Positions 39,119-64,000 of a stretch of 64,000 bases of DNA are shown in pieces. Source of the DNA: Psilocybe cubensis (taxonomy: Eukaryota); NCBI GenBank assembly GCA_017499595.2, contig CM038998.1, positions 4,588,001 to 4,652,000 on the forward strand. The letters run 5' to 3'. Within the stretch, counting starts at the first letter, position 1; each line of letters starts with the position of its first letter. Both the position numbers and the translations under genes were made by a program. The notes beneath the pieces were generated by a model that was not told the origin of the DNA, did not search any database, and saw only the letters and a program-made list of their open reading frames with translations.

Positions 39119-39871
39119 TTATTCCTGATTTGTCACGCTGAGAATGAAGTCCCAGTGTCCGTCTGTCCCAGACTTGACTTTCAGTCCGACGTACATCCTC
39201 CCTGGCAGGAAATCGATTCTTCGAAGACCGACCTCAGGTGATCCGATTGGGATCGACAGAGCTCTCTCCCTATATCTCTCAGAAATGGACATCTGCTCAC
39301 TTCGTTTTCTGCTGTGATACGATTCACCAGTAACCTTCTTTTGAAGGTGATTATGGATAGCCAATAGCACTTGCTTGACTTTTAGCTCTTCCGTATCTGA
39401 GATTAGAAGTGGCCAGTCTGCGAGATCGTCGTGTACCACTTGCATTTGGCGAATGGGTTCGCCAGAGGGCAACGTTCCAACAGGGTCGTCACCTCCATTA
39501 TCTCGAAGAAGGCTGATTAATTTATCCGGTTTTTCATTCATATCCCATTGCATTGGGTGAGCGGATACGAGAACCGGATTGAGTTTGGGCATCGCTGAAG
39601 TATTGAGCGCCGATGGTTCTCTGACAGAAAAATGTCTTGACCCAGACGGTCCTGGAAACGGATGACCCGGGGGAGGAGTGAGAGGTCCAATGCTTGAGTC
39701 TAGCGTTGATTCTGAAAATGTAGGCGATGGAGTGGGTGTAATGGGAGGTGGTGATTGCAGCGGAGTAGAAACACCTTCACCATCGGTCTCTTCCATATCG
39801 TCGTTCTCGTCCTCTAAGTCTACATCATCGAGGCTAAAACGAACTGATTTTTCGGCCGAGGCACTAGGCAT
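39119..39871 (-). CDS. Hypothetical protein with Pro/Ser-rich N-terminus and a conserved Agaricomycete C-terminal domain (DUF6699-like)
   Basis: 250-aa single ORF with LNPVL...MQWDM, LKVKQVLLAIHNHLQ and GLRRIDFL. The family assignment is from memory. Confidence 0.65.
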   Translation of the reverse strand: MPSASAEKSVRFSLDDVDLEDENDDMEETDGEGVSTPLQSPPPITPTPSPTFSESTLDSSIGPLTPPPGHPFPGPSGSRHFSVREPSALNTSAMPKLNPVLVSAHPMQWDMNEKPDKLISLLRDNGGDDPVGTLPSGEPIRQMQVVHDDLADWPLLISDTEELKVKQVLLAIHNHLQKKVTGESYHSRKRSEQMSISERYRERALSIPIGSPEVGLRRIDFLPGRMYVGLKVKSGTDGHWDFILSVTNQE

Positions 39872-40802
39872 TATTTATGTGCACCGCTATCGACAATGTT
39901 AATTGGGATGAAACAGAATCATGATGATGACTGTCTGCACACCTGGAAGTCTAACTGCGTGTGGTGAGTATCAAACGATATTGAGAATGTAAATCTTACT
40001 CGGTAAATGATTGGGGGAGAAGAAGATAGCACTTGCATAGAATCCATTCCATTCCATTGTCTGTATCATTTTTATATCATAATCCCTCCACATCCCCGAC
40101 GCGGCTGTGTTCCTACTATAGCATAGGTCGGATCATTTGGACCCAAGTAGGGGTTGACAGCCAGTGAGTCACAGATATCATACGTACTGTGCACCACTAA
40201 CAAAGTTGTAGTACAGCAAAAAGCCTGAGCAAGCCTATATTACAATAGTGAGCAACTGCCGACGCGGCGGCACTGAGCGTCACGCTGACTGGTCGGTCGC
40301 CCATTCGGTGCTAGATGCTCATGTATTTCCCACGAGCGGGCGCTGGGCGCTTGAGCGTTTTCGCATTGTTTGACAGGCGGCCTTACTGGTTGGACAAAGT
40401 CACAGCGCTATTGTCTTGAAAGAAACTGATATAATTTGGCCGCATTTATACCCTCTCGGTGGCGTGACGAAGGTGAACGCGTATCGCAAACTATCAGCTG
40501 AGCAAATTGGAGTATTTTTGCTCTTTTTTCCGACACTCCCCAAAGAATATGATATAGTAACGTGTAGGGAGATATCACCTCTACACATAGCGTCTAATTC
40601 GACAGTCCAATGCATTAGAATGATAGCTTGATCCTGACGTAATCTGTATTGTGGCTCATAGCAGATGATCTGTTGACTCACCCAAGTATATATTACCTTC
40701 CAGAACCTTCGATTATATCTGGTACATTACCCTGATACTGTTTTTAACATATTCACTTTACTAAATAATTTGGAGACGATGATAACAGCCTTAGCTGCTA
40801 GT

Positions 40803-41275
40803 TGAAGCCTTCATACCTGGCAGTTTCCAGGTGTATGGGAAGTATCTACGCTGGCAACTGCCAGGTGCCACAATTGAAGTCTTCAGCTGGGCAATGGTCA
40901 ATACGGCCAAACAAACCCCAAACACAGTGAGCGGGGCCCCGCCGGGCGCGAAAAATGGCGTAGCTCGTTGTTCGGGGGGCCGTTTGGGGCGGGAAAAAAT
41001 GCGTTGGGGTCGGTTCGATGAGCAGACCACGTCGGCATTGTTTGCGCGACGTTATGGACAGCGGGCGGGGTGGATGGGGCGGGGCGACGTTGGATGACGC
41101 CCGCATTATTTCTGGGTGATTTCCCGATTCGGGTTGCAGATCATTGATGTGTTGATGTGATCAAATTGATCATCACCATCAATCCCATCACGCCGCGGCC
41201 ATCGATTCAGCCAGCGCATGCACCGTGCGCGCGCGCGCGTTGAAAACGCGCACTGCTCGTTGTCCTGTAAGTCTT
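40803..41275 (+). repeat. Left inverted arm (473 bp, GC/CpG-rich)
   Basis: Its reverse complement matches 42578-42899 plus 50740-50893. The ORF track also shows the same MRASSNVAPPHPPRP... peptide on opposite strands. Confidence 0.95.
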
Positions 41276-42577
41276 CCAGCGCGGATAAAGCATCGAAGTA
41301 ACCTGTACAGGTATGCGACAGAGGTATATGGTAATATAGACCCATACCTACGGAGTTCAGCCAGTCTCCCGTGGGTAATTGCCTTGGATAGGCTTGGGGA
41401 AGCAGAGGCATATGATACCTTGACTAGCAGAAGTGCTGAGTAGACAACTTATTTATCTCAACCTATAGTCTACTAATGTCACTTAAAGCCTGGATCTTGT
41501 GTATGTAGTCATGTATACCAAAATTATTGTAAGAAATCTGATGTAAAATGCATTTGCTGCTGCTTCGCAAGTATCAATGATGCAAAAACAAAGGGTCACT
41601 GATTACTTTCCCATTCTAATGAACTCCAGGTCAAATAAAAGGGTATATAAGTAACGAAACAAATATACTGGTCATTCATATTAGAAGTACAAAGATTAAA
41701 ACAGTGTTATATTTGCTGTTTCACTCAATATCAACACGTACACGGTCTCGGAATCTAGTTTGGTGATCTCGGATTCAATTTTTTTGATGTATTTCTGAAA
41801 TTCTGGACGCAGTTCTGAAGATTACGTTAAGAAAAAGGTACCAACATGTAGCTGGTTTAAAACTAAATCAAAATGCATACACTTTATAGTGTGTGTTGTA
41901 TTTTGCCACATGGTGATCTTTGTGGACAAATTTATGGTTTTAGTGGTTTATGAGGTTGGCCTTCCGAGCTTGAAGCACACCTTTTGAGGCATCCATTTTT
42001 TTTTCACCGTATATTTGGATATAGAATGATTTTACATTATTTTAGCAATAATTCTTTTTGCAACTTCAACATGAAGATGTATCCCAATTGAATATTTACT
42101 TTTGGAATTGACGTAGAAAAAGCGTCCGGAAAGGTGGCTATTTTTAGATATTGACATAAAAAAGTGTTCTCGAGATGCTTTACAGTTGTGCATAAGAATA
42201 TACATATATAGCAACATCTGTTTAACTTTCTTAACGACATACAAAGAAATATAGCATCCACAGGAAGGGCACGACAAGTGCCAGTCAATATAGCAGCAGC
42301 AACATTCATCAAAGTCCATCACATGAACTGTATTTGACAAGTATTAAGAAATTACTCAGGTATTGATCATCTTATTGCTATGTTTTCTAATCCATAGCCA
42401 CTCAAAATATGTGCGGTGTCCATCAACTATCTAGAAACATGTAAAGATACCAGTGCTGTGTTGCATAATGCATTGTGATCCTTTGGATATCTCATTGGTT
42501 TGATTTGGTGAGCATACGGCGTCGCAGGACGTCACTCTATTAGTAATATTATGTCTCAGAACAACACCTCTGCGCGA

Positions 42578-42899
42578 AAGACTTACAGGACAACGAGCAG
42601 TGCGCGTTGAAAACGCGCGCGCGCGCACGGTGCATGCGCTGGCTGAATCGATGGCCGCGGCGTGATGGGATTGATGGTGATGATCAATTTGATCACATCA
42701 ACACATCAATGATCTGCAACCCGAATCGGGAAATCACCCAGAAATAATGCGGGCGTCATCCAACGTCGCCCCGCCCCATCCACCCCGCCCGCTGTCCATA
42801 ACGTCGCGCAAACAATGCCGACGTGGTCTGCTCATCGAACCGACCCCAACGCATTTTTTCCCGCCCCAAACGGCCCCCCGAACAACGAGCTACGCCATT
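42578..42899 (-). repeat. Right inverted arm, inner part (interrupted by the Plavaka insertion)
   Basis: Reverse complement of about 40954-41275, apart from a 3-nt loop inversion. Confidence 0.95.
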
Positions 42900-43344
42900 T
42901 GTCGGAAACTTCCCAGGTGCATGATCAGGCCGATAATGCCGTTAATGCTAAATTTGTATGATAATGCCTGATCAGAATTGTAGTCGCATGATCATTAAGC
43001 ACCAACGTGATCAGGTAGGCCATGATCAGACAACAAATACCTGATAAGATGCATTTGACAAGATTAGGTGACCCGTAAAATGAGAAGAGTCAAACATGAT
43101 CAAAAGAATACAAGAGCGTTGCTTGCCTTTAACACATACCTATAAGCCAGATATTGTAATTACAGAGCATTCATTAAGAGGATGTACTTAGCGGGATTCG
43201 AACACATTACCTTGAAAGTTGTTAGATATACGTGAAAGACTTCTTACCTTTAAAACCACTGAGCCATTTAGCTGGATATTAACTGGTTAAAAAAGGTTAA
43301 CTCGTACCTTTGTAAACATTTAACTCTTGAAGGCGTCACTCTTT

Positions 43345-43416
43345 GCCTCGCAAGTCGGATGCGCCTTGCAAATCGGATACACCTCGCAAATTGGATATGC
43401 CTCACAAATCGGATGA
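43345..43416. repeat. 18-bp minisatellite, 4 imperfect copies
   Basis: GCCTCGCAAGTCGGATGC / GCCTTGCAAATCGGATAC / ACCTCGCAAATTGGATAT / GCCTCACAAATCGGATGA. Confidence 0.8.
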
Positions 43417-43549
43417 GATTGACTTTTGCTCTTACAGTAATACCCACAATTTGCAAGGGACTAATAGCAGTCGGATAATGACAGTAAGTTCAGTTTAAAA
43501 TCTACACTGGATGTACTAATATTATCAATAGGACATCGACAATAATAAG

Positions 43550-45843
43550 TTATTTCCGTCCTCTTTTTCCAGAACCCCGGGACCGCGTTGAAGACTTCCC
43601 ACCTCGTTGCGTGCCTGGGTCATGACTGGTGGGAGAGGAATCATTGGCATTGTCATCGGAATGATGGGAGGCATTGATTGTGTGAAAAGAAGTATGGGCT
43701 GGAAATCTTTCTTCCACGGCTAGACGAGAAGCTATAGCTCTGGACTCGGTGCGTGTTAACCGTTTTGTCAATGTTGCGACGGGTTCTGATGGATTGGCTT
43801 GAGAAGGTAGGGATTCCGTCAAAGGGTCGGCAAGTGTCAATGGATTGATAGTCGTCGGGTTGACATTGATATCATTGACAGAATCTAAAGTTGGATCGTT
43901 GCGGGGCTGTTCATTGAGTGGACGTGCGCCATCGTGATGTGGTTCTTTTTCAAAATTATCAGAGTACTCCGCATCTGTAGTCGGACCATGGATAGGAACA
44001 AGTACTATAAGCCAGTATAAATTAGTACAGTATTAACAAACATAGTCACAAAAGTTGAATTTATGACTTACAATCTGAGCGCATATCTTGACCTTCAATA
44101 TCGTTGTCTGCATCCTCCGTTTCATCGAAATCTTCTCGATCAAATGCATCAGAATATGAAGACACAGCAAATTCAGATTCTTCTTCAAGACGCAGACGCT
44201 CCATGTCTCGCTCAATTTCGGCAGCTTGATCTAATTCAATAACCTCTCCATCACCATCGTGTCCAGATTGTCCATGTGCCGAAATATTGACAGCAAATAC
44301 TTCACTGTCCCACTCTTTGAGAAGTCTAACAACATACCCTGCAGTTGCCGGATTTGCATGAAGTTGGGTGAGGTACATTTTGTAATAATTGATCTCGGCA
44401 TTGTAGTCAATCTTCGTATCGGGTCCAATTCCTGACCCGCCAAACGATTTGTCGCTAGATAAAATATATCTGCACTGATAATAGATGAACGTTGTATATA
44501 ACAAATAAGGTAGACGGTCCAGCAACTTACAAATCCACAAATATTTGCAATTAGACCAAATGTAGTCTTTGCAGGCTTGTCCGACCCTAGATAAAAGCTT
44601 GAGGCCCGAGACACAGCATTGTCCTTGTCCATAGCGGATGTCTTTCCAAAAAGCGTAGCACGAGCAGTCTACAACAAGCCACCATAGTTAGTGTGAGCTT
44701 TGTAATTAAAAAAAATAAGCAAGTAACTGTTCATACCATATATAGAGACCTGTTTCGAAATCTATGTTCAACACGGGAGGTATCACCATTTTTACACAGA
44801 ATAGGTGGAAAGCGAGCATAAGCCTTTTCGGGTGAGGCCTTTCCTGCTTCCGAGTTAGCAAATGCGACATTAAATCCCAAAAGCTTCTGAATTTCCGGCA
44901 TCTTGATTCGTTGGGATGTAAATTTAGGATCAAAGTAATGTGTCGGAAGGCCAAAAATACTGGCTGCACAAGACGTTCGAAGCATTGATAATGATGTGGA
45001 CCGACCAGCACTGAGTCCCTCCCTAAACTGTCGATGTAATTTGCACCCATTCAACAAAACATTAGCATTCTATCGACAACTCGTTTAATTTAGAATATTA
45101 ATGACTTACCAATCGGAGAAATGTTTTACCCTTTGAGCTAGACGCCAACCGCATGATTGGATGATACTTGGAGGGAATGTGCTCGTAAAGCTCTAGAGTT
45201 GCTCCAATAGCCTCATTAGCTGGTGATTTGTAGCGCTCAACGCTGTCCAAGGCAAATGATGCAGTAGGTAATGTTGGAGAAAACATGGCAGGTGTAACAA
45301 AGAGATTGTAAAACAGTCCAAAATACCGCCCCCATTTTTTCACATCCAGCGCCATATCTGTCACAGCAGGGTCTACTTCGGATGAAATTGGGTCTACAAT
45401 AGTGCCTGGAATACTTGCATTTTTAGCATTCTGCACGCGCTTTGGTTGACGTGTGAGCTGTAGCTTTAAATCTGCAACCTCAGCTTTAAGCTGTGAGTTT
45501 GCAGTCTGTAGAGACGAGTAGTCCTTTTGCAGTGTACAGTAGGCCTATAATATGTCAAAGTGATTCATTTTCTGTTATTCTATACAGAAGTGTGAATGAA
45601 CTGCACCTTATAGAGCTGTGTCATGTCTAGAAATTGAGGAACAGCAAAAGATTCTGAAGGATTATTTGATAGCAAGGAAGCGTTGGAAGAAGAAGTATCT
45701 AGTGGGAGTAATGTTCCGGGATCTGTAGCAAGTCCTGGCATTGAATCCACAATAAGAGGAGGAGTGCTAGTACGTGATAGCATTGGGTGATTGCCAGATG
45801 TACTTCTAGCAGAGCTTGGACCTTGGATACGACGACGGGCCAT
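43550..45843 (-). CDS. Transposon accessory gene of unknown function (multi-exon; coiled coil, conserved core, acidic/disordered tail)
   Basis: Spliceable exons MARRRIQ..., KKWGRYFGLFYNLF, YARFPPIL, ARATLFGKTSA, TTFGLIA, RYILSSDKSF..GPDTKIDY and LLKEWDSEVF, ending GKRGRK*. The gene lies wholly between the TIRs. Confidence 0.75.
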
Positions 45844-46535
45844 CACTTTTATGTAGTTAGATTATGTCTACATATGCCTTTGGCTTGTTTTTTTATAAGA
45901 GCTTCCCTTCTACCCGCTTCCAAATTAACTATAAACAATGTCTTCTATCTACTGATAATGAGGTAGATGTGAAAGTATTGTATTTTAGAACAGTCTGAGA
46001 CACATGCTGCTTGGAAGCGCATGCAATATGATTAGCAGATAAGCATGTTGTAGCTACACACCATTTTGATCAATGCACCCGGTTGATAGTGAAGGGATTC
46101 TCAATTTATTAATTCATCACTAATGCACATGAAATTGCATTGACACCACATGAGCAACTATCTATTGAGACCTCCACCTGATATGTGAGCGCATTCTAAC
46201 ATGATAGAATGCTATTCTATACTACAAATTAATTGAATCTATGTTTAATTTGTTGAATTTAGCCATGCCGCTCTCCAAACGCCTGTTACCATGTGCAATT
46301 GATTTGTTCTAAGTCAACTTTCTCACGGCTGTGAACTTTCTCACGATGTCGCATTCTTCTTTACTTGCATTTCAGGATGTGCCGATGTGTTACCGTTGGG
46401 CCAAAATTAAGTCTTTCAGTTTAATATGCCTAAATATATATGAAAGCGCAGCAAGTCTAAAGAAAATACCTTTATTTGGGGTGACCATTGACAAGTACAA
46501 AGGCAAGTGCAATTAATAGCAGGGCGGACAGTATA

Positions 46536-49500
46536 TTACACATTTGCATGATTAATCAATTCTACATGACCTAAATCTGGATTTAAGCGTTCCCACATAT
46601 CCTGATCAATGAGATCGTTGACCAAAAATTCTGATCCAGTGACATCCGTGCTGTGATTTTTGGATAAAAGTGCACCCCGAATGATTGTATCAGCATGTAT
46701 GAAAACAGCTGATGATCTTGGCCGAGACCGAACCCTGATTAATCCCAAGTCTATGTCGCGTCGGCGAGCCAATAAGGATCGGGGGACATCCATAGGCAAG
46801 GCTAGTGCCATATAATATGTTTGATTATGTAGCTCGATACCAAATAGATACAAAAGCTGCACAAAAATGCATTGCTTTTGATCAACCTTGATAAGGGCAA
46901 AGTCATATCTTTCTTTATGATGGAATTTGGGATTTGTTCGGAGTATATTGCTTTCTACCCGCCAGTCAATGAGTGATTCATAGAATACCTCAATAGACTG
47001 ATAGGGTGTGATCTAAGTATTGAGAAATTTGATGTTAGTTCAATGCTTCAAACTGCATGCAAAAGTCTAAGTCTGATAAAGGTTAAACACTTACTGGATG
47101 ATCTGTACTCAACAAAACTCTACTTCCAACGGTTTGTGAGAGTGATTGACCCAGCCTTCGTCGGAATAAATTAAATGCAGTGTCTTGTGAGTGGATAGTT
47201 TCCAGCTCAAGTTCAGACAATGTAATGGTAGGAAGCTTTGATCCAAGATGTATATGGTCATTTCCAGGCTTAGATTTTGCTGGCAGGTCTAGGCCGTCTC
47301 GTTCTTCTGCATCTTCTATATTTTTCTCCACAGAAACATCGAGTAAGTCTATTCCATCACGTACAATATTTGACACAAGATCCATTTCATTGACTTGGAG
47401 AATCTAACGAGTTAAAAAGATGTAGTGATTCAGTTATGTATCAGGTAATGCTCACATAAAATAACACAGTTCATGGCTTACTTGTGGTGCTACATTCTTG
47501 AAATTGGTATGATTCTGATAGAACTTTTTCAATGGTCCGTTTGCCTTCTCATATGGCTTTGTATTATAGTTGCGAGTTACGCCTTTATTAAGAATGTCGT
47601 CAAATATATGCTGGTGCGTGTGTGTCTTGGGAAAATTCCAAGACTTCTCTGGACTTTCAGATGCATACAACTATTTTGTTAAAATTTTGTGACAAAGTAA
47701 GCCACAAACCAATATTTGTAAAAGAAACACACCTGAAGAGTTTTGTTGAATATTTCAAGATATTTCCGGCCATTACTGATTGTTGTTTCCGTTTGCAGAG
47801 TTAGTGAAGCAAACATTCGAAGGTTTAGGTAGCTCCGAATTAGCCGTAGTAGTAAGTATCCACGTGGAGAAGCTTCAGCAGTCAGCACATGTTGAGCAGC
47901 AAAAATGATAACCTTGGATAGGTGTTCAAACTTTCGTCCATCAGACATTTCTCCGGTTTTATTTAGTGCATCAAAGTGGTTGAGTGCAGGCCATGGGGGA
48001 ATACTTTGCAGACCAAGATCTACACCAACCTCAGCATCTCTACCTAGATCCCTAAGCACTGCTTTTAGCTCCACCAACATATGTGATTTGAATAGTCCCC
48101 CATCATAAGCATGTAGCACATCAAAGGAGAGTGCTTTGTATATATCGGTTCGGTTTATATCCCAGAATACATTCTAGAAACATAAAATATAATTTCAGCA
48201 CAAGAGTAAACAATCACCCTGCTAATGGGCGCTTATTTGAAATATACCATAACATCTGTAATCCCATATGATTTAAGCAGATCTTCGCTCTCTGTTGCAT
48301 TTAAACTTTGGGAATGAATGTAAATTTGACGCATTTGAGAGGTTGTGCGTCGAGGATACACAGTTGAAAGGTTGGAAAGCTCGGAATTTGGAACTAAACA
48401 AATTGGGCAAGGAAACAGTCCTGTTCGACCTCGTGTCAATGCCATCATTGTCCTGTCAATAAAATTATAAATTAGTTATGCTACAGAACTCTACTTTTAT
48501 AATACAGCTTACTGTTCTTCGTAGTCAGCAGATATTGAGAGAATATGAGGAAAGATATTTCGAGTCTTTCCATCACCACACTTGATTGCAGCTCCAAAGG
48601 TTGCTGGCGCTTCAATTGACTGTAGAATTTTGTGTACGGCCTTATGCCAAATTAACCGTTTAAGGTCAACGTAGCTGGCTTTGTGAGTATGGGCTGAATC
48701 CTCGTCTGGCTATAATGAGAGAAGTTCAAATAATATTAGCAAAGATATGGGCTATTTGAGAGACATTGAATCATGTAACAAAATAGAGACATACAATGGG
48801 TAACCAGCCAATAAGTCGACCTCCTCCAACTCCAGTTCCATTCCGAATATCAACAGGAAGGTTTGCACATCGTACCATGACAGGATAGCCTTTGACTGTT
48901 CCAAAGGATGATAATTGGGATTTATCTGCCCAAGGATTGATGAACATTACACTAGCGTCATTTGGAATGTCTGGCCGTGACTTTGACATATCAAACATTT
49001 TGTGAGTAAATAGACTTGATTCTCAATGAAGTATTAGAATTTTGATACCTGGATGTCCCACCAAGTGTTCGCAGTCCACGGCTCATCAATTATCCGCTCA
49101 AACCTCTCTCCTTTATACATGAACAACTGTTCTGCATTCCAGTGAAACCTTCGGACAAGTGCTGGATCCAAAAGAAGTTCACGGCACCATTCCCATAGGG
49201 GACGGTACCACACATTGTAGGTAAGGCTTTCACCCTTGTAATCGACCGAAATGGGAGTCTTGATAAACTAAACCAGTTTCCAACAGGTGAATAATGAATT
49301 GTTAAATAAAGTTGCAGTGTGCACGTACTCCCTGTGCACGGGTTTCCCGTGCAAAAGTCCATATTTGAGTTAAATCGGCATCATTTTTCAGTGTGAATTC
49401 ATTCGGTGATGCGATGGCTTGATGAATTAGAGCGATAAGCACCTCTAACTGATTATGGCTCAGATGGGCGCTAAGAAATATCTCTGCAAACTCGAAGTCA

Positions 49501-50142
49501 AGACGTGTACGGAACGGGCGCCAAGGCCTCTGGTCCACATTGACCGAGTTTAATGGTGAGTTGCCTTCGCTTTCAAGCTCGCAGTATTCGTCAAAAGTAT
49601 AATTTGCATCTGGCATTTGGGAGCTTGGGTGATACTTAATGTGTATGTCTTGAAATTGGGGAGTGTCAGTGCTGCGAGCTTGCTCAAAATTGACGTCTAA
49701 TTCAGAATCCTCTTTTACAACATCATCAGTAGCTTCTTATCTGTTTTTCTCTCAATTAAATAGTGCTTACCTTCGGAGAATATATTCGGAAAGTTGGGTA
49801 CTTCTGGTAATATACCGGCCTTGTGATAGTTGTTTGGATGTTGTTGTTGAGCAATTCGGATAGCATCATCAACTATTAGAAATACAAGCATTAGAAATAT
49901 GTATGCACAGAAGTAGATACCATCTTTCCATTTCTGCCCTCTTGCTCAGCAAGAGCAACAAATTCCGTGTCGATTTCCGGTGCGTGACGGTTTGAATTGG
50001 CTGGATTGAGTGCGCATCGTCGTTCATGAGCTCCAATTCCGCGAGGAAGGTACATGTTTGTGCACCAGGTGCACTCAACACGACCAGGATCTGCATGAGA
50101 CATCATGTGCCCTTTAGATTGAGATGTTTTACGAGGAGGCAT
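46536..50142 (-). CDS. Plavaka-family DDE transposase (multi-exon)
   Basis: PWRPFRTRLDFEFAE, YRPLWEWCRELL, DEPWTANTWW, WADKSQLSSFG..GYPV, LSISADYEEQ, FPCPICLVP, LSFDVLH, WNFPKTH, NYNTKPYEK and RYDFALI. Exons from about 49735 to the stop splice in frame without stops. The phase of the first exon (CxxC...H...C finger) was not cleanly resolved. Confidence 0.9.
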
Positions 50143-50739
50143 AATATTTGGTAAGAGGCTTGTAAGAGAGAAGATAAGGGCGCTATTTGTTCATTTAAGA
50201 AAGCACACATTCCACTGTAATTTATACTTTTCTATGTCTTAAGAAATTGAGTTACATTAAGCTAGAAGAGTTCTATACCTTCTCTAGAAGTTTACATGTC
50301 TACTTTCTTGTGGAACTAAGTGTTCTAAGCATGCTAAACTTTGTAGATGACAAAAAATCGAAGCCATTAAAGGCATTTAAAGTGTTCTATTGTCCATTTT
50401 ATTTGTGTTTAGTATTGTGATATACAATCTAATCATACAACCTAGTGCACAGATTGCCCGTAGAAGCATAATGTGTGGTGCTATTAGGGTTTTTGGTATG
50501 CTTAAACAACTCCAAAGTCTCTAGCAATCGTTTCCTCACGTCGTCTATGACAAGTCCCTAGTGTACGTTATCTTATCTTAAGGTCATTTATAACATCACA
50601 CTGCTCTTAGCATTAACAGGAGGCGGTCTCGCTTATCATACCACGTTGTGCATTTTAGCCCATTAACAATGATCTGATCAGTAAAATTGGGGCAATGATC
50701 AGACTAACGCCTGAAAAGGCGATCTAGAGGTTTCCGACA

Positions 50740-50893
50740 TTTTTCGCGCCCGGCGGGGCCCCGCTCACTGTGTTTGGGGTTTGTTTGGCCGTATTGACCA
50801 TTGCCCAGCTGAAGACTTCAATTGTGGCACCTGGCAGTTGCCAGCGTAGATACTTCCCATACACCTGGCAACTGCCAGGGTACGAAGGCTTCA
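50740..50893 (-). repeat. Right inverted arm, outer part
   Basis: Reverse complement of 40803-40955, with two substitutions and one indel, all in the outermost ~30 bp. Confidence 0.95.
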
Positions 50894-51843
50894 GGGCGCT
50901 ACTACAGGTGATGATAATGGTTTTTCTGGAAACATGATCAAAAGGTACCCTCGTGGTTCTGATTCAATGAAGATCACGGACACAATTCTTTGTTCAACAT
51001 TTTATATCTATAGTTATCGTCGCAGTTTTTCGTTCCGCATATGGGGGAGATACTGCCATCTAATCTGAGTCCATACATCTTTGCTGTCATATGGATGATT
51101 GTGTATGCTTGCGCAGCGTTGTGTGTGGCACTTGACACTGTAATAAAAATAGGCCGGCTTACAGATGATTAATGAGGCCGGACGTCCTTCAAGAGAGACT
51201 TACAGTCCTAACACCTCTCCCAAGCCATATATTGACGCAATATATGCAGAATCAAACTAAAAGGCGCTTTTAGGTGTCTCATGCTGGACGGTCTGGCATC
51301 CGGGAGGGCCAAGCCATACGACATAAGTGGTTAAAAACAAGGGATACATGTTACATGTCAATTATAGATGGGCAGACAACATGATAAAAAAACCACCTAT
51401 CCCCAGTGATCGAGTTCTGCTCATTGTATCTAAGCATTTTCTGACCTAAAAATATTAAAGAGTTGGAACAATCATAGATTCATCATTACAGGGCCGCATA
51501 TCACAGACACACAACAAGTCAAGAAAGTTGTACAAGGAGCCGATCGCAATCCATGCCAGATGGGTACAACGCTACAGAAGTGGACAAAATAAACGGCTCC
51601 TAAAAGAGTTGATTGGTTACCTGAATGATCTGAGGTAGGACAACCCTACTATTCAGCGTTCATCACAAAAATACAGTGCCGAGCCATGGTAAATATGAAA
51701 AGATGAAAATGTCCACAACAAATGACTGATGGGAAAGAGGAGCACTGGCAAACCAAGACAGTACTCATCGTACCCAGCAGCCATACATCAGACACGACAC
51801 GCTCACAGATATATGATTTGAGATGCAACTCGATCCGAAGAAG

Positions 51844-53696
51844 TTACGATTTCCCGCCAATGGACTGCCCGGAAAGCCGTTTCCTGGATGATTACACGCT
51901 TAGGCATACGTTGGAGGGAAGAAAATAAATGAAGCACGTACATATTCATATTCATTTCAGCTATAAGCTTCTGCAGGTTTCCGATTTCTTTCCTTACAGC
52001 GCTCAGCTCGCTCTGGACCTCCTCAATATTTTTGTTTTGCTTAGTTGCATAGCGTTCCTGTGCCCGCTTTATCTCAGCAATGTCAGTTTCGAATTGCTTT
52101 GCCACATTTCCCAGACCGTCCTTTAGAGCCAAAAAGTCTTTGTCTTGATTATCGGCCATGCCTTTCAGTTCCGAGCTAACGCTAGAAAACTGGCCCTGTT
52201 GATGAGCATCGAGTTCCGTAAGAAAATTCTGTAGAACATCGAAACGACCGCGGCTCGCATTCTTTGCGTCTTCAATGAGAACCTCCATACTTGCAATGTC
52301 TTGTTGATGAGACCCTGATAGATCGTCAAACTGATGAAAATACTTGGATTAGAAACCGTGAGCTCATTGAACGAGGTCTCTCGCTAACCTTCTCTTGAAG
52401 TGTGTTGTGTATTTCACGTCGGAATTCATCCGAGAATACCATCAGATCGTCAACGACTTCCCGCGTAAGCTTCAGACCTTCTTCGACTTCGAGATGGGCC
52501 ATGGGCCACAGTTGCAGGCCTTCTCCTTCGGAGAACGAGAGAAGGAATTTTCCGTCTGGGGAGAATCGTACAATTTTAACGCGATCAACAGCGATCTGGG
52601 TGCCCAGCTGTCCACGAGTGGCAACGCTCCATACTCGTATGGTTCCATCGTTCGAGCCACTGGCAATGTATTTTCCATCAGGAGAGATGGAGATTGTTTT
52701 GACTAAGCGCTCGTGACCATAAATCGGAGCACCATCCTCCTTTCCAGTTCGTGAGTCCCATATGCGGATCGACTTCTCACCACAGGAAGCGATGCGCTGA
52801 CCCCCCGGAAACCAGGAGAAGGCATGTGCGTAGATGCTATGACCTACCATCTCGTTTGTCTGCTCTCCAGTGTAAGTGTTAAAAATGCGAATCTTCTTAT
52901 CTAAGGTGCACGTAACCGCAATGACACCAGAATGGGAAGGTGAGAATTGGATAGAGGTTATGGTACATCCGGGGATCCTAATAGCTCTTTTGGGATTCGA
53001 ATAGGCGTCGGTCTTAACTTCCCATATATTGGTCACACCGTCTGTGCCACTAGATGCCACGAGCATGGGGTACGCAGTTGAGCTAAATGCTACAGAAAGA
53101 ATTCCAGAGGATCCGCTGAAGGGGCCAGCAAACAAGACCTTGTGGGTACGCCTGTCGGATTCCTTCCACAGAAGGACCTTGTTGTCGCTTCCTCCAGTAA
53201 CAACGTCGTTCCCAGTCTTGGACACAGCGACTGCGAGAGTGATATGGCTATGGCCAACGAATGGTTCACCATCTTCTTCCCCGCTTTCCAGGTCCCATAC
53301 TCTGGTTGAGTTGTCATCGTGGCCAGCTGTCACGATGCGCTTCCCGTCCGGAAAGAATGCTATCTCTTTGATAGAGCCGCGCCAGTCTTTCCATGGATAG
53401 TATCTTGTTGGCTGAAGAGGCGACTTGGGAGAAGTGGAAAGCATTACTGCACAGAAATGTGAGGAAAAGATAAGCGCCTGTACAAAGCGATAAAGTAAAA
53501 TGAACAGTATCGGAGTCGGAACCAACCCAATTGTACTGGATAAAGGCTCAATCCCGTGAGATTCCCGTGGGCATTCTGTCACTTTGAATGTGCTTCCGTA
53601 CCCAACATCCTCAGTTCGGGATAAAGGTTCCCACTGGATGCTTATTTGATCAACAGGAGGCTCATCTGTATCGACGGTAATGCCCATTTCGGTCAA
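51844..53696 (-). CDS. WD40-repeat (about 7 blades) protein with a C-terminal coiled coil; 5' end uncertain
   Basis: AFFPDGKRIVTAG..TRVWD, GHSHITLAVAVS..VLLW, GHSIYAHAFSWFPGG..IRIWD and GHERLVKTISISPDGKYIASGSNDGTIRVW; heptad-rich exon at 51803-52288. Confidence 0.85.
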
Positions 53697-56502
53697 TTTA
53701 CATCAACCCAAAAATAAAACGCAATTCAGACTAACAAGATGATCTATTCTTAGAACGTCACCGTAAAATCAGCTTTATTGAGCACACCAACGCTGTAAGT
53801 ATGAGTAAAGAGAGCTTACATCCACAGTCAAAGAAAAGGAGAACATTACAGTGAGCGACAGAACGTATCATATTTATCAAATCTGCATTACTAGTATTTT
53901 GAGAAGTTGGAAGGCAACTCCCTCCTATAGTTGTTTCTATAGTAACAGCTCAACTCTCCATCCTCTTGTTCTACAGACCAAATCAGCTCGGCCAATCAGA
54001 GCAGGATCCGCCGAAGCACACTGCCAGTATTATATCGCTCAAGAATAACAGTCGACGATGCCGATCAGATCTAATTGCAGACCTTTCTAGAGGACAGGAA
54101 AGAACACCGACTACAAGTACAAATACCATAAAAAAGGAATTTTTCTCAGACAATATGGTAGAAAAACACTACTGACTGTAGATCCTGCCTACATACTGCA
54201 GAGTTTCATCGCGAATGAACGGAAAAAAGCGTACGTCCGACGACAACGGCCGCTCGTCTCCGCCTTTGCGTTTGATTGTCCAAATAGAGTGACGATCTAG
54301 GGCATAGGTCGCCAATACCACGTAGGTGGGACTGAGGTAGCGTTCTCTTGGAATGTCGTTGTCACAAGATGACAAAGGCGTTGGTGCTGCTGAATCATTG
54401 GGAAAGGACCGACGTCAATTTAAAGGAGCCTGCCGCTGAAAACGGGACGAATATTGAAGGAAAGTGTCCAAGCATTGTTCAACATACGCACTACAATTTC
54501 TTCATATACGTGAGCAATTTAATACCCAGCTCCAAGTAGATTGACCCTGACAGGAAGAATGCCCAAGGAGTATTCACAGTAACTTTGAATAGATTCCATG
54601 AAAAGGGAGCACACCTTCAAGTTCAGACTTCGAGTCGCAACGAAGATCCCTTAACCCTAGGATCTAATAGTCAGGCATACAAAGAATTACTTCATCTTTA
54701 ATTTCCACATTATACGTCCCCTGGCCAGACCAAGAGCAAAAACACCACGCTCCTTTGCCTCAGGCCTACTACGTACGTATCGTGGTCTGTCTAGGAGAGA
54801 CTACAGGCCTGTGGCTTTATATGGCCCATGTTTGGCTAATGTTTGGCGTTGGACGGCTTTTTCCGAAATCCGTGACCATATGACAAATGATGGATCGGAA
54901 CATAGTCGGCAATCAGCCATCACTTCGACTTCACGCTTGCGAGCGAAAAAATATTCAACTTGGTGAACATACTCATAAGGAAGGAATATCAGAAAGCCGC
55001 CCAAGAAAAGGAATATTAAAGCAATTATATCGCCGCAATTTCATAGATGCGATAGATAAATTTGTTTCTCCTTAACGAATGTGGTCCGGTGGAATGGTTG
55101 TTGCCGTTTTGGTTTTTGAAGGATGCGTTTTTTGGGACATCAATCCAAATCTAATCTACCTTGATCTGCTTTAAGGTGGTGCTGCTAAAGTGGTGTGGAC
55201 CCCAGAGTCATCCAAGTACGTCCAGAAGGAAATCAAGACTTATACCTGCCATATGTAACACAAATCGTAGATTCCAATGATCTTGTTGAGCCACAATGCT
55301 TCCAGTCTCCAACGAGCCGAATGAGGAGACTTAATCAAGCACCTAAAATTGTCTAATGTATCTAAAAGTATGTATATCGTCTACCCTGTAGAGCATTAAA
55401 CATCCTCATAGCATCGTTTACTAGAGTAATTGGATCACAAACTCTCCCCCTGCTTCTGAAATATCCAGTTTATTAACTTTATACTGGATTGATTAAATGT
55501 TTAGAGTTTCCAACATTCTCAGGATTTGACACTCCGATGTGTGGGCGTCTCTATGCTTTACAGTCAAACTAAACATTTTATTCATTACAAAATCCATCAT
55601 CATGCAACGCATTTGTTAATCAACTCTTCTCTGAATCTAGAACGCAATCCAAGAGGTGACCACCTACACTTCGCCCGGGATCCGAGTAGACAAGGTCTGC
55701 GCAATGCCCTTTGGCCGGGCCGACCGTAGTAATGTACCAATGTGGTATTGTACACAGACAAAGTCGAGTGGTTCGGTGATCGCCCCGGACTCGGACTCGG
55801 AGATCAAGATCAATTGCGCGTAGATTCAGATGTAATAACTTACTAGGACCTACTAGTACTAGGAGAGTAACGATTAAAAAACTTTGGAATATAGGATATG
55901 GATAAGAGGTATGACGGGCGGTGGGTTTTCGATGGACATTGATTCACGCCACAATGATTTTGGAAGCCTGATTTTCGGGGCAACAATCAACTGTTTATGT
56001 CCCCATACGCTCTTTTCTTTCGTTGGCTTTGGAGAAACCCAGCTTTGCACATATTATTGATACTCTGGCCCCTTGGCGCATATTTCGATATGATCTAAGT
56101 ATGTGATTCATCAACAGCGATTAATTGGAGCGAAAGAGGAAGAGCGCATGATGAAAAATTTATGGCCAAATACTTTGGAAACGCGATTCAGTCATGATAT
56201 TTCCTCACAATGTGCGGAGTCGAGTAAGATCATAAATACATTGCGACTACCAGAAAGACAGTGGTAGAAGATTAAGCAATAGGGCGCCAAAACAAGCGTC
56301 GCCTGTATTTTTCAACTGACGAAGACTGTATCGCTAGTCAATCCCGCTCGCTTCGTTGGCGAGCGGGAGGCAAGCGGAAGGGACGCCACTGTGAGATCTA
56401 AGCGCCGGTTATCAATCAAGCGAGTGTTAATTTTATCTCTCGCGTGGGGACTATGAATAGCTTTATCGTTCCAAAGCATTTCTATCACACCTCAAAGCAA
56501 TG

Positions 56503-58036
56503 GGGCAACAAGAAATGTCAGTGCATGTCAGTGCATGTAAGTGCACGTCTGCACTGACATACACTGGCAATATAATGTCCATGCACTGACATGCACTGAC
56601 ATGCACTGACGTGCACTGACATCACTTAGTACTCGTGAAACTGTGTTTGAGCAGGATATTACATTACGGTGCCATTTTAACCTCATAGATTTTAATTTTT
56701 CTTTCTATTTAGATGCTTATATAGTAGGTTGTTGTACTAAGAGAACCACGGAGTTGTAATTGCTATGTGTTTGATACAAACAAAATTTGACGAAGTGTCA
56801 CACCGTGTGCCTTTACATTTTTAGGTGGTTGTGTCCTCAGTAAAATGTACACATCAGTTGGGGCATCTACCTTTAGGATGGATGCTACATACAATTCAAA
56901 TGATATTATAAATGTGCACAAAATGATATAGTTTGCTCATGCCACAGGGGCCAGGCTATTATTTGTAGAGAAATTTGTCATTGAGTAATATATTCCGTGT
57001 AATATTGAAGTCTGTACTTATATACAATAAAAGGATGTTGAGTGCCCAACTGCTTAGACGGATTTTGATTGTATTACAAGTGTCTAGAAAGCAATTTAGT
57101 CACATAAATTATCTTTACACTAACTGCCAAGAGTTGATGCACTGACACATGCACTGACCGCCAAGCAATTGCACTGACAATGCACTGACATGCACTGACG
57201 ACGCACTGACATGCACTGACAACGCACTGACATGCACTGACAATGCACTGACGACGCACTGACATACACTGACATACACTGACCTTCAGTGATGATGCAC
57301 TGACAATGCACTGACATTGATTTTACCTCTTAATCATGTTATCTTTGATTTTAAATGAGGAATACAATAGTAGGTAGGTAGACTGTATCAATTCCCTCCA
57401 GTCTATCAGCTATTCCCAAGACCCGCTTAAATAGGGTGCTCCAATGGGCCTTTTTAACTCCCTTGCCCTTTCAGCTGTGACATGATAACATTGAATCCCT
57501 ACCAGCAAACCGCACCCCAATACAAGGCCAATACCAAAGCATTGTTGCACCTTCAGCAAAAGATGATCCCAAAGCATTGTCAAATGAGCATGTTTGATTA
57601 GTTATACAAAGGGATACTCTGAAGCGCCTATCTAATAATTCCTACACAATTCATTCATTTTCCCAACATCTATGCTTGATTTAGTACACCGGATTGTTAC
57701 TTGAAAATGTAGAGAATATATGTCTACTTCTATATCTTGGTATTTAGCCATTCCTGACCCAAAAATTCCGAGACTGTATGCTTTAATCCTCCCCAAGTTG
57801 ACTTTCTCACGGCCCACAACTTTCAATTAACAAGTACAAATTTTACCACCACACGATGAGCTAACCAATGCACTAACATAACCCTGAACGCACTGACACA
57901 CCCTGACCAATTTATAGATCATTGGAAACATGCACTGACATTGCACTGACATCACTGCAGTTTGCACTGACATTACTGCGGTATGCACTGACATGCACTG
58001 ACCGCACTGACGTTGCACTGACATTTTCCAGTGCCC
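56503..58036. mobile_element. Non-autonomous Mutator-like (MULE) element, 1534 bp
   Basis: Perfect 9-bp TSD AAAGCAATG at 56494-56502 and 58037-58045. Termini GGGCA..TGCCC, with an imperfect TIR continuing AAATGTCAGTGCA. No transposase ORF seen. Confidence 0.85.
57138..57316 (+). repeat. Tandem array of the GCACTGAC-core 10-12-mer (also at about 56515-56621 and 57869-58023)
   Basis: Directly visible (T/C)GCACTGAC(A) repeats with short variable spacing. Confidence 0.9.
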
Positions 58037-59158: not shown

Positions 59159-60863
59159 ATGCCTATGCGATCTTCCTTCCGTCTCGTATCTCCTCCCCAC
59201 TCCTCTGGAAGCTCCGACACCTCGTCCTCTGCCGACAGTTCTGAGAATGCAAAGAACATGGTCGAGGAAGTCCGCTCCCTTGCGCAGTGCATCGATATTT
59301 TCGAGAACGGGCCCCGGCCACTCAGCGAATCTCTCGCACTTTTGAACGACGAAGAGGTGATCATGCTCGCCCAGTGCGGCAAGATCGCTGCGTACTCTTT
59401 GGAGAAAGTACTCGGCATGAACGAGTTGGAGAGGGCTGTCAGAATCAGGAGAGCGTTGATCTGTAAGTTCCTTTTAATTGCATCAACGTCGATCTTCATC
59501 TCAGCGTGCTATTCTTGTAGCTCGTGCTTCTTCTACTCAGACACTTGAGGCATCCGATATCCCTTTGGCAGATTATGACTACTCCAAGGTCCTTGGTGCC
59601 TGCTGCGAGAATGTCGTAGGATACATCCCCCTTCCTCTCGGTATCGCAGGCCCACTTTACATTGACGGCACGCTCTACCCTATCCCTATGGCCACTGCCG
59701 AGGGCACTCTCGTTGCTTCTGCGTCTCGCGGTTGCAAAGCCCTCAACGCTGGCGGAGGTGTCACTACTGTCCTTACCCAAGACGGTATGACTCGCGGCCC
59801 TGCCATCGACTTCCCCAGCATCGTCGACGCTGCATCTGCTAAAATCTGGATCGACTCCCCCGAAGGCTACTCTACCCTCAAGAAGGCCTTCGAGAGCACC
59901 TCGCGCTTCGCTAAGCTCAAGAGTCTCAAGACTGCTATGGCTGGTCGCACACTCTACGTTCGCTTCGCGACGTCCACTGGCGATGCGATGGGCATGAACA
60001 TGATCTCAAAGGGCACAGAGAAGGCACTGGAGGTGATGCAGGAACGGTACCCCGGGATGGTCGTTCTCGCTCTCTCAGGCAATTACTGCACAGACAAGAA
60101 GCCCGCGGCTATCAACTGGATTGAAGGTCGCGGGAAGAGTGTGGTTGCTGAGGCTGTCATCCCCGGACATGTTGTCAAATCGGTGTTGAAGACGACTGTT
60201 CCGGCCTTGGTCAACCTCAACACGAAGAAAAACTTGGTCGGAAGTGCTATGGCTGGCTCTATCGGAGGATTCAACGCGCACGCTGCAAACATCCTCACTG
60301 CGATCTTCTTGGCTACTGGCCAGGACCCTGCTCAGAACGTTGAGAGCTCCATGTGCATGACTTTGATGGAAGCGTAAGTCCTCTTTTTGAAACCTTGCAT
60401 CTAGCGATTTAATTTCTAATAACTGTCTTTTACTATAGTGTCAATGACGGTGAAGATCTTCTTATGACTGTCAGCATGCCTTGCATTGAAGTCGGAACCG
60501 TTGGCGGAGGCACCGTTTTGGGTCCCCAAAAGGCCGTTCTTGAAATGCTTGGTATCAAAGGTGCTCATCCAACCTCACCTGGACACAACGCACAGACGCT
60601 TGCTCGTATCATCGCCGCCGCTGTCATGGCGGGTGAACTTTCCCTTCTTGGTGCTCTCGCAGCTGGCCATCTTATCCGGGCGCACATGCAGCACAACAGA
60701 GCCCCCCAGACAGTCGCTGCCCCCGTTTCCGAGAAGATTTCCCGTAGTTGGTGCGCAGAAGAAGGGTGCGATCTACCGACCACATCTGGTTAGGGAGCAG
60801 TCTTCGGGAAGTGTCTTGACACCTTCGTCGTCGACTACATCGCTACCTCCATACTCGCAGTGA
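59159..60863 (+). CDS. HMG1: Class I HMG-CoA reductase, catalytic domain only (no N-terminal membrane/sterol-sensing domain seen)
   Basis: [64 protein letters not shown] and AHMQHNR. There are two clear introns. The stop is at 60793, or at 60863 if a 43-nt GTGCGC..TAG intron is spliced. Confidence 0.93.
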
Positions 60864-61877: not shown

Positions 61878-62750
61878 TAGTGCTGCCGCCACAGGACAGG
61901 ACTGCACTGTGATTTTTCACACTCCGATATACTGCACAGCGTACCACAGTCACTGTGAAGGCTGTGCACAGTGTGCCGTAAATTTATGTTATTTTGTCAA
62001 GCCATGGTTACGAGGACATTTATGCAATTCCTGCCCTTTCTTTCTGTTCAACATTATGATTTAGTATGGCCTTAAAATGAAGGACTATTACAATTGGAAA
62101 CAAAAATTCTCTTCTAGGTTACTTTTTAAGTAACCTACACAAGCTTGATAAAAGCTTAAATAGATTTTTGTCCTCAAAAATGTGCAATTTCGATAAAACT
62201 TTCTGCAATCGGAAAGAAACATCTCAGTCTGGGTGGCAAGAATACAATATTATACTTAAAAGTGAATAAAAACATGTAGCAATGTGTCTATGCTTTCACA
62301 ATGAGACTTGAGAGTGTTGCTTAGGTGTTACGAAATGGTTTTATTTATTAAGTACAAACACTGGTTTTTGTATCTAATCTTATCTGCAGAGTATATCTAA
62401 TCTTATCACACTTTCTACTAGAATCTCATAATCTTGTTTGGATCTTGTCGGATCCATTACATGATAACAGTTTTTCTTCTACACTTATGGGTTGGTCACT
62501 GTCTAACAAGGGGATATAATGTTCAGAAATAAATTCTGAATTGTAGGTAATAAAACATCAGACAATAGTACTGGACATAGCCATCTTCTGTAACAAACGC
62601 TATGTATGTGGGCAAGGAACTGCGTGATTATGTGTGACGTCATTGGTCACTTCACAGTACTTCACAGTAAACTGTGATAACTGTGAAGCGTGTCACACTG
62701 CTAAAAATTATGCTGCACTGTCACTGCACTGCACTGTGGTGACAGCACTT
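61878..62750. mobile_element. Non-autonomous hAT-like element, 873 bp
   Basis: Imperfect TIR TAGTGCTGCCGCCACAG / CTGTGGTGACAGCACTT. The 8-bp TSD has one mismatch: GACTAGAG (61870-61877) and GGCTAGAG (62751-62758). Subterminal CACAGT/ACTGTG motifs. Confidence 0.7.
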
Positions 62751-63344
62751 GGCTAGAGCAATCTAGGCCAGTTGAGACATGTCCGAATTTTCTTTTTTGT
62801 ACAATATGCTAACATTCTAAACCTGAACTTACGAGTCCAGGCATTTGGGCATATTTAATGGATTTTGTATTTTATTTTTTCTATTTAAACTGAATTTTAG
62901 AATGTACAAATATTCTTTAATACTGGAAAATGTCCTAATAATTTGCAGTTTTAGTATCAAATCCATCAGATCCAGACAATGGTTAGCCTGCAATGCTATC
63001 AAATCCATAAAAAATGGAAAATAAAATGCCAAATTTTTGGCCTAAAATCTTTCAGAATCCGGACAAGCCTCTAAGAGAGCTTCTTAGGGCTTATGGCTTT
63101 TTATAGCCAAGATAATATATTTTTGTAAGACTTCTCCTTAAGCACGCAACATCACTTAATATATTTGTATGTGAAACACAATGCACCAACGTGCTACTTT
63201 TTTTCTTTGTTTTTAATTGTATTGTTTGCATTGCAAAATAATCAATTTTTAATACTTATTTGTTTTTGCTTGTTTCTGTATTATTTCTGGTCAAAAAGAA
63301 AAAAAAAGTAAAATTATGTATATGTATAATTTATATACTAAAGA

Positions 63345-64000
63345 TTATATTTCAGCATCATAACCAAATTTGTGATCCATATATTTAATATATAATATTT
63401 TCCAAACAAATTCTGCGGTTGACTGCAATTTGTGCCACTCTACCAAAAGAGGTCGATTCTATAAAAAATAAATATTTATTAATAGGACATATAAAAGTAT
63501 AATAAATTTCGTACCATTGTTTCCCGTTCAAACTGGTTCATACAAATATGGATAGTGGTCATGTGCTTGTAAATATCCTCGGAATCCTTGATATTGAAAA
63601 ACTCCAAAAATTTCTTCCAGTCTGTTTTGTCGATGAAACGGGATACAAGTGCAACATATACCACATACTTGCTGCTTAGAATTGGTTCTAGCAAGTAATA
63701 TGCTGCCACAAAACTAATAGAGCTAACAGAAACAACAAATACGTCGTTTGTTGGCCAGTAAATGTCGTTGGTAATTGGTTCAATACAATAACCTTCAATC
63801 AGCTCTGAATTAGCATCCTAAAATAGCAAAAATAAATATAAAAATATTAGTATATAGTGTAAAATGACTTACTAAAGCATATATAGCATATTCTTTATAA
63901 CCAAATTCTACAAATTCCTGGACAATTGTGCCGTATCCAGGAAATCTATCAGATCCATAAGGAAATACAGAAAATATTGCTTCTTTAGCATGACATGTAA
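63345..64000 (-). CDS. 3' part of an AT-rich spliced gene of unknown function (continues beyond the window)
   Basis: Three exons join in phase 0 through GT-AG introns: ...GYKEYAIYAL | DANSELIEGY...FERETM | NRPLLVEW...YDAEI*. Confidence 0.6.

Follow-up and report, generated by a model that had tools for sequence, protein, structure and literature searches.

A nested two-gene Plavaka transposon of Psilocybe cubensis read against a paralogous empty site

Plavaka transposons were reportedly named by Iyer et al. in 2014, and those of mushroom genomes are the closest described relatives of the element that we analyse here, a 7840-bp unit at positions 42900-50739 of a 64-kb stretch of Psilocybe cubensis DNA (contig CM038998.1; the whole stretch is called the window). 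In the accessible text of one comparative source (PMC12730594, Biology 2025), PlavakaA families of Agaricomycotina have the termini 5'-TGT..ACA-3' and make 2-bp target duplications, Plavaka has the motifs C(2)C and H(3-4)H, duplications in relatives from the wider clade measure 2-5 bp, and a grouping of Plavaka with EnSpm, Transib and RAG1 is proposed from motifs. According to PMC8290104, Plavaka inverted-repeat motifs were characterized in a supplementary figure. The MarorPlavaka families of Marasmius oreades resemble the window element in being PF18759-defined Plavaka in a mushroom genome, as far as the accessible parts of their two sources go (PMC8290104, PMC9674265).

The window unit is very probably an intact cut-and-paste transposon of the PlavakaA lineage, within the clade related to CACTA/EnSpm, Mirage, Chapaev and Transib, in a genome of the P. 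cubensis type. It shares with PlavakaA a qualifying PF18759 score, TGT..ACA termini, a 2-bp duplication (read at one site) and the C(2)C and H(3-4)H motifs. CACTA/EnSpm elements proper have CACTA ends (5'-CAC..GTG-3') and a 3-bp duplication, whereas the window element has TGTCGG/CCGACA ends and duplicates 2 bp. The likeness to the En/Spm elements of plants lies in the layout: two co-oriented genes, short terminal inverted repeats, a short duplication and subterminal repeats clustered under both ends, as TGATCAG is here. Unlike those of En/Spm, however, the two genes of the Plavaka element are separate rather than alternative splice forms, and its second protein has no match to any transposase-associated Pfam family at E ≤ 1. 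Because PlavakaA ends have already been published, the element does not define the end structure of its family, as an earlier note made from these letters had suggested; that claim is superseded by the TGT..ACA termini and 2-bp duplications in the accessible text of PMC12730594. The element is an ordinary, well-preserved member of a family with a published end structure.

What makes the locus informative is that the unit interrupts one arm of an inverted repeat whose other arm keeps the uninterrupted sequence (Table 1). Writing a slash at each element boundary, the filled site reads CGCCATT/TGTCGGAAAC...GTTTCCGACA/TTTTTCGCG, with the left junction ...GAGCTACGCCATT/TGTCGGAAACTTCC and the right junction ...AGAGGTTTCCGACA/TTTTTCGCGCCCGG. 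The terminal inverted repeat is perfect over 10 bp, with a mismatch at position 11, and its exact 10-mer occurs twice in the 64-kb window, at the two element ends and on opposite strands. The interrupted arm comprises 42578-42904 and 50735-50879, the continuous arm 40816-41275; aligned without the insert and one TT, the two arms agree in 476 of 493 columns, with no difference around the site. Arm homology fixes the breakpoints independently, so that a perfect 10-bp inverted repeat lying exactly there is not a matter of chance. The filled site exceeds the empty one by 7842 bp (7840 + 2), and a joined form that skips 7842 bp was found in all four public runs in which we examined other copies (X11 as raw reads; X3, X5 and X7 as contigs; in each case among the rows listed). 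As the arm is itself a repeat, most instances of the joined form derive from the arm's other copies, and they confirm the arithmetic rather than an allelic empty site. Sequence, 10-mer search and arm alignment thus agree on what the earlier note had described, a 7840-bp unit with a perfect 10-bp terminal inverted repeat inserted into one arm, with the empty site preserved in the other.

Other copies of the element bear directly on where it begins and ends, with the qualification that the four runs may share the same copies and that their end positions are not fully independent observations. In X11, the loose ends listed include 46 reads whose match to the element starts at T42900 and whose preceding sequence is unrelated. 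Their number is about the local depth, which fits all X11 copies lying elsewhere, and their consensus agreement before 42900 is 0.63, which suggests more than one flank. One X7 contig of 4740 nt (record 18) matches from 42900; an X3 contig (record 7) and an X7 contig (record 21) stop exactly at A50739, and one X5 contig follows the window to 50740 before it diverges. T42900 and A50739 therefore travel with the element in other copies, which gives TG..CA ends and a TT duplication, the first of two parses in the earlier note. This is good, though not exhaustive, evidence for those ends and that 2-bp duplication.

Both genes of the unit are open. The spliced transposase product agrees at all 975 residues with P0274, an annotated protein of P. 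cubensis that scores 175.3 bits on the Pfam Plavaka profile PF18759 (cut-off 26.3); three single exons match the same profile, one of them above the cut-off (exon 48771-49022, 26.5 bits). The closest database proteins are from P. cubensis, and there are 377 homologues at E ≤ 1e-10, of which the best 120 are named from mushroom-forming fungi. A 5' frameshift that the earlier note had feared is absent: it was suspected because the acceptor of intron 2 had been put two bases too early, and the acceptor aaaagAG/ at 49710 gives an open frame of 975 amino acids. Gene model A, in which intron 2 ends at 49712, meets a stop at codon 113 and was replaced by the P0274-based acceptor; gene model B, with a 101-nt intron 1 and 958 amino acids, gave way to the 975-residue model that matches P0274, and 'DDAIRIAQ', proposed as a conserved frame from a weak resemblance to P0003, was dropped. 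A mechanical search for open splice paths returned 89 one-intron and 2144 two-intron solutions, so many that an open path alone proves nothing.

The motifs WAD, SADYEE and KPYEK, previously picked out as lying in uninterrupted exons, indeed each fall within one exon and hold the catalytic residues D327, D432 and E692. Alignment of 62 homologues shows no variation at the first D or the E; the second D, like the Cys and His residues of CxxC and HxxxH, is retained in at least 90% of them. The latter two motifs, C451-x2-C454 and H668-x3-H672, sit between D432 and E692, each inside one exon. An N-terminal C2HC finger (C24, C27, H39 and C43; C-x2-C...H-x3-C) recurs in relatives from other genera.

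Downstream of the transposase, gene 2 gives a spliced product that is identical to the annotated protein P0277 at 652 of 652 residues and one residue off P0005, so that the description of a complete two-gene Plavaka holds. Against Pfam DUF6698 (PF20414) this protein scores 22.2 bits, just below the cut-off of 23.7 (E 1.3e-4), and DUF6698 is matched at E ≤ 1e-3 by 43 of 48 aligned gene-2 sequences (the query with P0006 and 46 of the longer among 150 listed hits). An exhaustive search with the protein retrieved 176 cluster representatives at E ≤ 0.001. DUF6698 is present on 72% of the members of the nearest Atlas cluster, which scores 0.96. The association with the transposase is recurrent. Across the P. 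cubensis annotation, a transposase and a gene-2 relative have neighbouring locus tags at no fewer than four loci (0000062/0000063; 0000068/0000069; 0001546/0001547 plus 0001549; 0013128/0013129), which indicates that gene 2 is not a chance neighbour. In addition, three of seven unusually long annotated proteins, P0173 of P. cubensis, P0247 of a Coprinopsis species and P0021, contain Plavaka and then DUF6698, in the order of the window; these are probably run-on gene models.

A structural model of the gene-2 protein (predicted local distance difference test (pLDDT) 70.8) has a long helix at residues 74-111 (coiled coil), a confident all-alpha core at ~140-435 and disordered tails. Foldseek against solved structures returned no match at E ≤ 0.001, and a wide structure search gave only single-helix coiled-coil matches (Z ≤ 5.0) over residues ~72-135. 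Because these searches barely probed the all-alpha core, we claim no new fold. The bZIP entries NFIL3 and ZEBRA were set aside as matches to the long helix only, with no basic region before it. No paper containing the term DUF6698 was found in the searchable literature. The accessible text of PMC12730594 contains 'Psilocybe' 0 times and describes no second gene of the DUF6698 kind, though its supplements may show one, and a preprint about Plavaka in algae names TET/JBP as the only accessory gene previously reported in basidiomycetes (10.1101/2025.02.11.637652).

The subterminal regions carry a palindromic repeat. Over the whole window TGATCAG is not over-represented (13 found versus 12.2 expected), so only its clustering at the ends is meaningful: 8 of the 13 copies in the window fall in the ~200 bp under the two ends. 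The two ends also align with each other in inverted orientation over ~110 bp, with a score of 71, whereas shuffled sequences have a mean of -5.5 and a maximum of 36.

To place the transposase structurally, we used an AlphaFold2 model built on the protein P0001 with the 62-homologue alignment (mean pLDDT 84.1; predicted template-modelling score 0.82). Foldseek matched the model to the RAG1 core at E 2.3e-8 and to Transib transposase at 3.8e-4. With a second structural aligner, RAG1 superposed at Z 17.6 with a root-mean-square deviation of 4.3 Å over 472 residues (model 161-721 on chain 480-1029), followed by Transib at Z 14.2 and the P-element transposase at Z 11.2. A search independent of Foldseek, over 48,161 representative chains, ranked RAG1 (Z 16.8), the amphioxus RAG-like protein (15.8), the P element (11.2) and Transib (9.6). 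The predicted structure thus supports the grouping of Plavaka with EnSpm, Transib and RAG1.

The comparison with RAG1 and Transib, for which solved structures exist (6dbo, 4wwx, 6pqx and others), also brings out differences. The superposition concerns model residues ~160-722 and the RAG1 core; the predicted Plavaka transposase has in addition an N-terminal C2HC finger and a C-terminal domain that resembles BAH. The terminal dinucleotides are CA..TG in RAG1 and Transib and TG..CA in the Plavaka element. RAG1 and Transib make target duplications of 5 bp, compared with 2 bp here.

The C-terminal likeness appears in the model at residues ~748-945 (exons 47403-47095 and 47012-46536), which superpose on the BAH domain of ORC1 at Z 9.6 (3.2 Å over 126 residues) and on DNMT1 BAH1 at Z 9.1, and then on TNRC18, ZMET2, MET1 and others. 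Hits to this region in the 48,161-chain search (Z 6.0-9.2) come from about 15 entries that contain BAH and from no other class of fold. A Pfam search of P0274, P0001 and P0003 found no BAH family at E ≤ 1; in some relatives Pfam DUF6830 covers the region, and a similar domain occurs on Transposase_21 proteins of Mucoromycota. We treat the predicted BAH likeness as a moderate lead from fold only. No description of a BAH-like domain on a Plavaka transposase was found in searchable papers.

These features suggest a possible course of transposition. The transposase may bind the ends and the subterminal repeats through its N-terminal C2HC finger, the gene-2 protein or both, and D327, D432 and E692 would serve to excise the element at the TG/CA boundaries. 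In view of the RAG1- and Transib-like core, cleavage would probably follow the nick-then-hairpin chemistry of those enzymes. The ends would then be joined to the target with a 2-bp stagger, and repair would leave TT in duplicate. Most likely the gene-2 protein assists at TGATCAG sites as an accessory factor, a role that would be comparable to that of En/Spm TnpA, though not in sequence, and a preference for inserting into marked chromatin may come from the BAH-like C-terminal domain. In its fullest form, we hypothesize that Plavaka is a self-contained fungal counterpart of RAG: a RAG1-like transposase whose own BAH-type reader steers it into marked, transposon-rich chromatin (here another transposon), together with an adjacent partner protein, borderline for DUF6698, that recognizes palindromic TGATCAG and helps to pair the ends. 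As a complete scheme this is a speculative proposal that we consider unlikely to hold in all its parts.

The copies of the element in public data closely resemble the window copy. X3 contigs are 0-3 letters off the window over 570-2474 nt, and public P. cubensis transposases and gene-2 proteins are, respectively, 99.9-100% and 98.8-100% identical to those of the window; there is also a second subfamily at ~90% identity. In X11 the depth over the element is ~1.4-1.5 times that of single-copy flank, and a third to half of the reads have variant letters at many places, which together point to more than one recent copy. There is no strong C-to-T bias between copies, and we make no claim of repeat-induced point mutation given the X11 counts (C>T plus G>A at 232 places versus A>G plus T>C at 190). 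As judged from sequence comparison, these data indicate recent amplification and a polymorphic locus; current movement of the window copy is not thereby shown. To call the element young and possibly autonomous, as had been proposed, is reasonable with both frames intact and near-identical copies elsewhere.

The inverted repeat into which the element inserted is present as the earlier note described it, but it is not plain host DNA: it belongs to another transposon, which we call the host element. The X11 depth over the host arms is ~381 versus ~30 in the single-copy flank (~12x), and the centre has several times that depth. No open reading frame of at least 50 amino acids of obvious meaning was found in the host element. 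Its homology ends on the right at 50909/50910. Contigs of X5 and X7 pass at 50910 from the right flank directly into sequence like the left flank 40747-40777, and the whole nested unit is therefore missing from the locus there; a long contig of X3, whose match likewise ends at 50910, would fit the absence of the nested unit. What is missing in X5 and X7 is the whole composite and not Plavaka alone. The single-copy flank differs by ~5% from the X3 and X5 contigs (57-60 changed letters and 8-9 gaps in 1090 nt), which implies that these isolates are divergent at the locus. The 8-bp duplication of the host element fits hAT, Zisupton or Mutator-like superfamilies. Its right-hand terminal ~30 bp are unlike the common end type of other copies. 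The arms differ internally at one short segment only, 41227-41249 versus 42602-42624 beside a (GC)n run, where one has TTGAAAAC and the other TTTTCAAC, a difference resembling a small inversion.

How firmly the boundaries and the activity of the element can be read depends on three other accounts. At a single site, parses with a 2-, 3- or 4-bp duplication are all arithmetically valid for 42900-50739, and the accessible text of PMC12730594 gives 2-5-bp duplications for wider-clade relatives; the true ends might accordingly be GTC..GAC (or asymmetric) with a 4-bp ATTT duplication (or 3-bp ATT or TTT), the T-run of the target mimicking TG..CA. We judge this very improbable, since the other-copy reads and contigs listed always include T42900 and A50739, on which target bases would agree only by chance, and since PlavakaA is described in the same text with TGT..ACA termini and 2 bp. 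The ATTT parse, which the earlier note had held equally valid, is disfavoured by where other copies begin and end. An assembly artefact, in which a transposon copy was misjoined into the repeated arm, might be entertained in view of the high copy number of that arm and of the lack of a junction-bridging contig among those listed. A misjoin, however, would not make an exact 2-bp duplication of the arm around perfect inverted ends, and when the insert and a single TT are taken out, what remains around the site is exactly the other arm's sequence; such an error is extremely unlikely. Somewhat doubtful, but deserving more weight, is an account in which the copy looks intact and is immobile, an older Plavaka insertion having been carried along while the difference between isolates arose from the outer host element or from divergent haplotypes. 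It would explain why X5 and X7 miss the whole composite rather than Plavaka alone, and it agrees with the intact outer ends and 8-bp duplication of the host element and with the ~5% divergence of the flank. It sits less well with perfect inverted ends and a perfect duplication, two open reading frames, several copies whose proteins are 98.8-100% identical, and an X11 depth and variant reads that suggest more than one recent copy.

Several further points weigh against reading the unit as an intact, recent PlavakaA element with a RAG1-like transposase. Compared with all four runs, the window lacks 11 bp in intron 2 (at 49714) and 28 letters between the genes (at 45986-45988), so the window copy is a non-coding deletion variant, and neither excision nor new insertion has been observed for it. 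The 2-bp duplication is drawn from one site, from the homology stops of other copies and from the literature; none of the contigs listed bridges either junction, so that confirmation of the filled site's junctions comes only from the assembly of the window itself. The splice sites follow from identity to a public gene model and from GT-AG rules, with thousands of other in-frame paths possible, and the placement in PlavakaA comes from termini, duplication and motifs rather than from phylogeny. On the structural side, the modelled protein was P0001, which is 90.8% identical overall to the window product and is not that product itself, and a profile of the 62 homologues searched against all sequences of solved structures, including RAG1 and Transib, gave 0 matches at E ≤ 10. 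With these points counted, an intact PlavakaA-lineage transposon remains by a wide measure the probable identity of the unit.

Table 1. Coordinates of the Plavaka element, its genes and its host element in the window
Feature	Position	Strand	Detail or basis
Host element, multi-copy, apparently non-coding transposon	40786..50909		arms ~485-490 bp, centre 1302 bp, Plavaka in right arm
Host 8-bp duplication GATGATAA, perfect direct repeats	40778-40785, 50910-50917		arm alignment; flank joins
Paralogous empty site CGCCATTTTTCGCG	40960-40947	-	uninterrupted arm of inverted repeat
Left target-duplication copy TT	42898..42899		empty arm 5 T versus filled site 2 + 5 T
Left terminal inverted repeat TGTCGGAAAC	42900..42909	+	homology of other copies begins at 42900
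Left subterminal zone, six TGATCA cores (five TGATCAG)	42922..43102		motif count
18-bp tandem repeat GCCTCGCAAATCGGATAC, 3.9 copies	43345..43414		downstream of gene 2, between gene 2 end and left element end
Gene 2, 6 exons, 5 GT-AG introns (56-82 nt), 652 amino acids	43550..45843	-	stop 43550-43552
Transposase gene, 11 exons, 10 GT-AG introns (48-85 nt), 975 amino acids	46536..50142	-	stop codon 46536-46538
Catalytic residue E692	codon 47550-47548	-	residue mapping
Catalytic residue D432	codon 48526-48524	-	residue mapping
Catalytic residue D327	codon 48926-48924	-	residue mapping
Right subterminal zone with TGATCAG cores, TGATCA twice in 50675-50701	50674..50702		motif count
Right terminal inverted repeat GTTTCCGACA	50730..50739	-	X3 and X7 contigs end at 50739; one X5 contig fits to 50740
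Right target-duplication copy TT	50740..50741		comparison with empty arm

Elsewhere in the window, an open reading frame at 39119-39874 (-), ~1 kb to the left of the nested transposons, matches Pfam DUF6699 (45.6 bits), a family of unknown function whose Pfam number adjoins that of DUF6698. Neighbouring genes include an AAA ATPase exon at 12894-13871 (+), a WD40-repeat protein at 52326-53702 (-) and an HMG-CoA reductase at 59478-60377 (+; 364.8 bits). Arrays of the unit TGCACTGACA, with periods of 10, 11 and 21, occupy 56510-58025 and include an inverted pair at 56510-56627. Over its last 2 kb (62001-64000) the window has a reduced G+C content of 0.30-0.35.

Ordinary as a transposon, the element forms part of a particularly clean natural pair of filled and empty sites, which confirms the published end structure of PlavakaA. 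As a reference copy it is suited to a transposition assay: the mushroom is cultivable, the two-gene element is intact and apparently recent, and its exact ends, exons and catalytic residues have been mapped. If confirmed, the RAG1-like architecture, the fused BAH-like domain, the recurrent gene-2 neighbour and the palindromic repeats would make Plavaka a tractable fungal relative of RAG1 and Transib, of interest to specialists in transposons and in V(D)J recombination alike.

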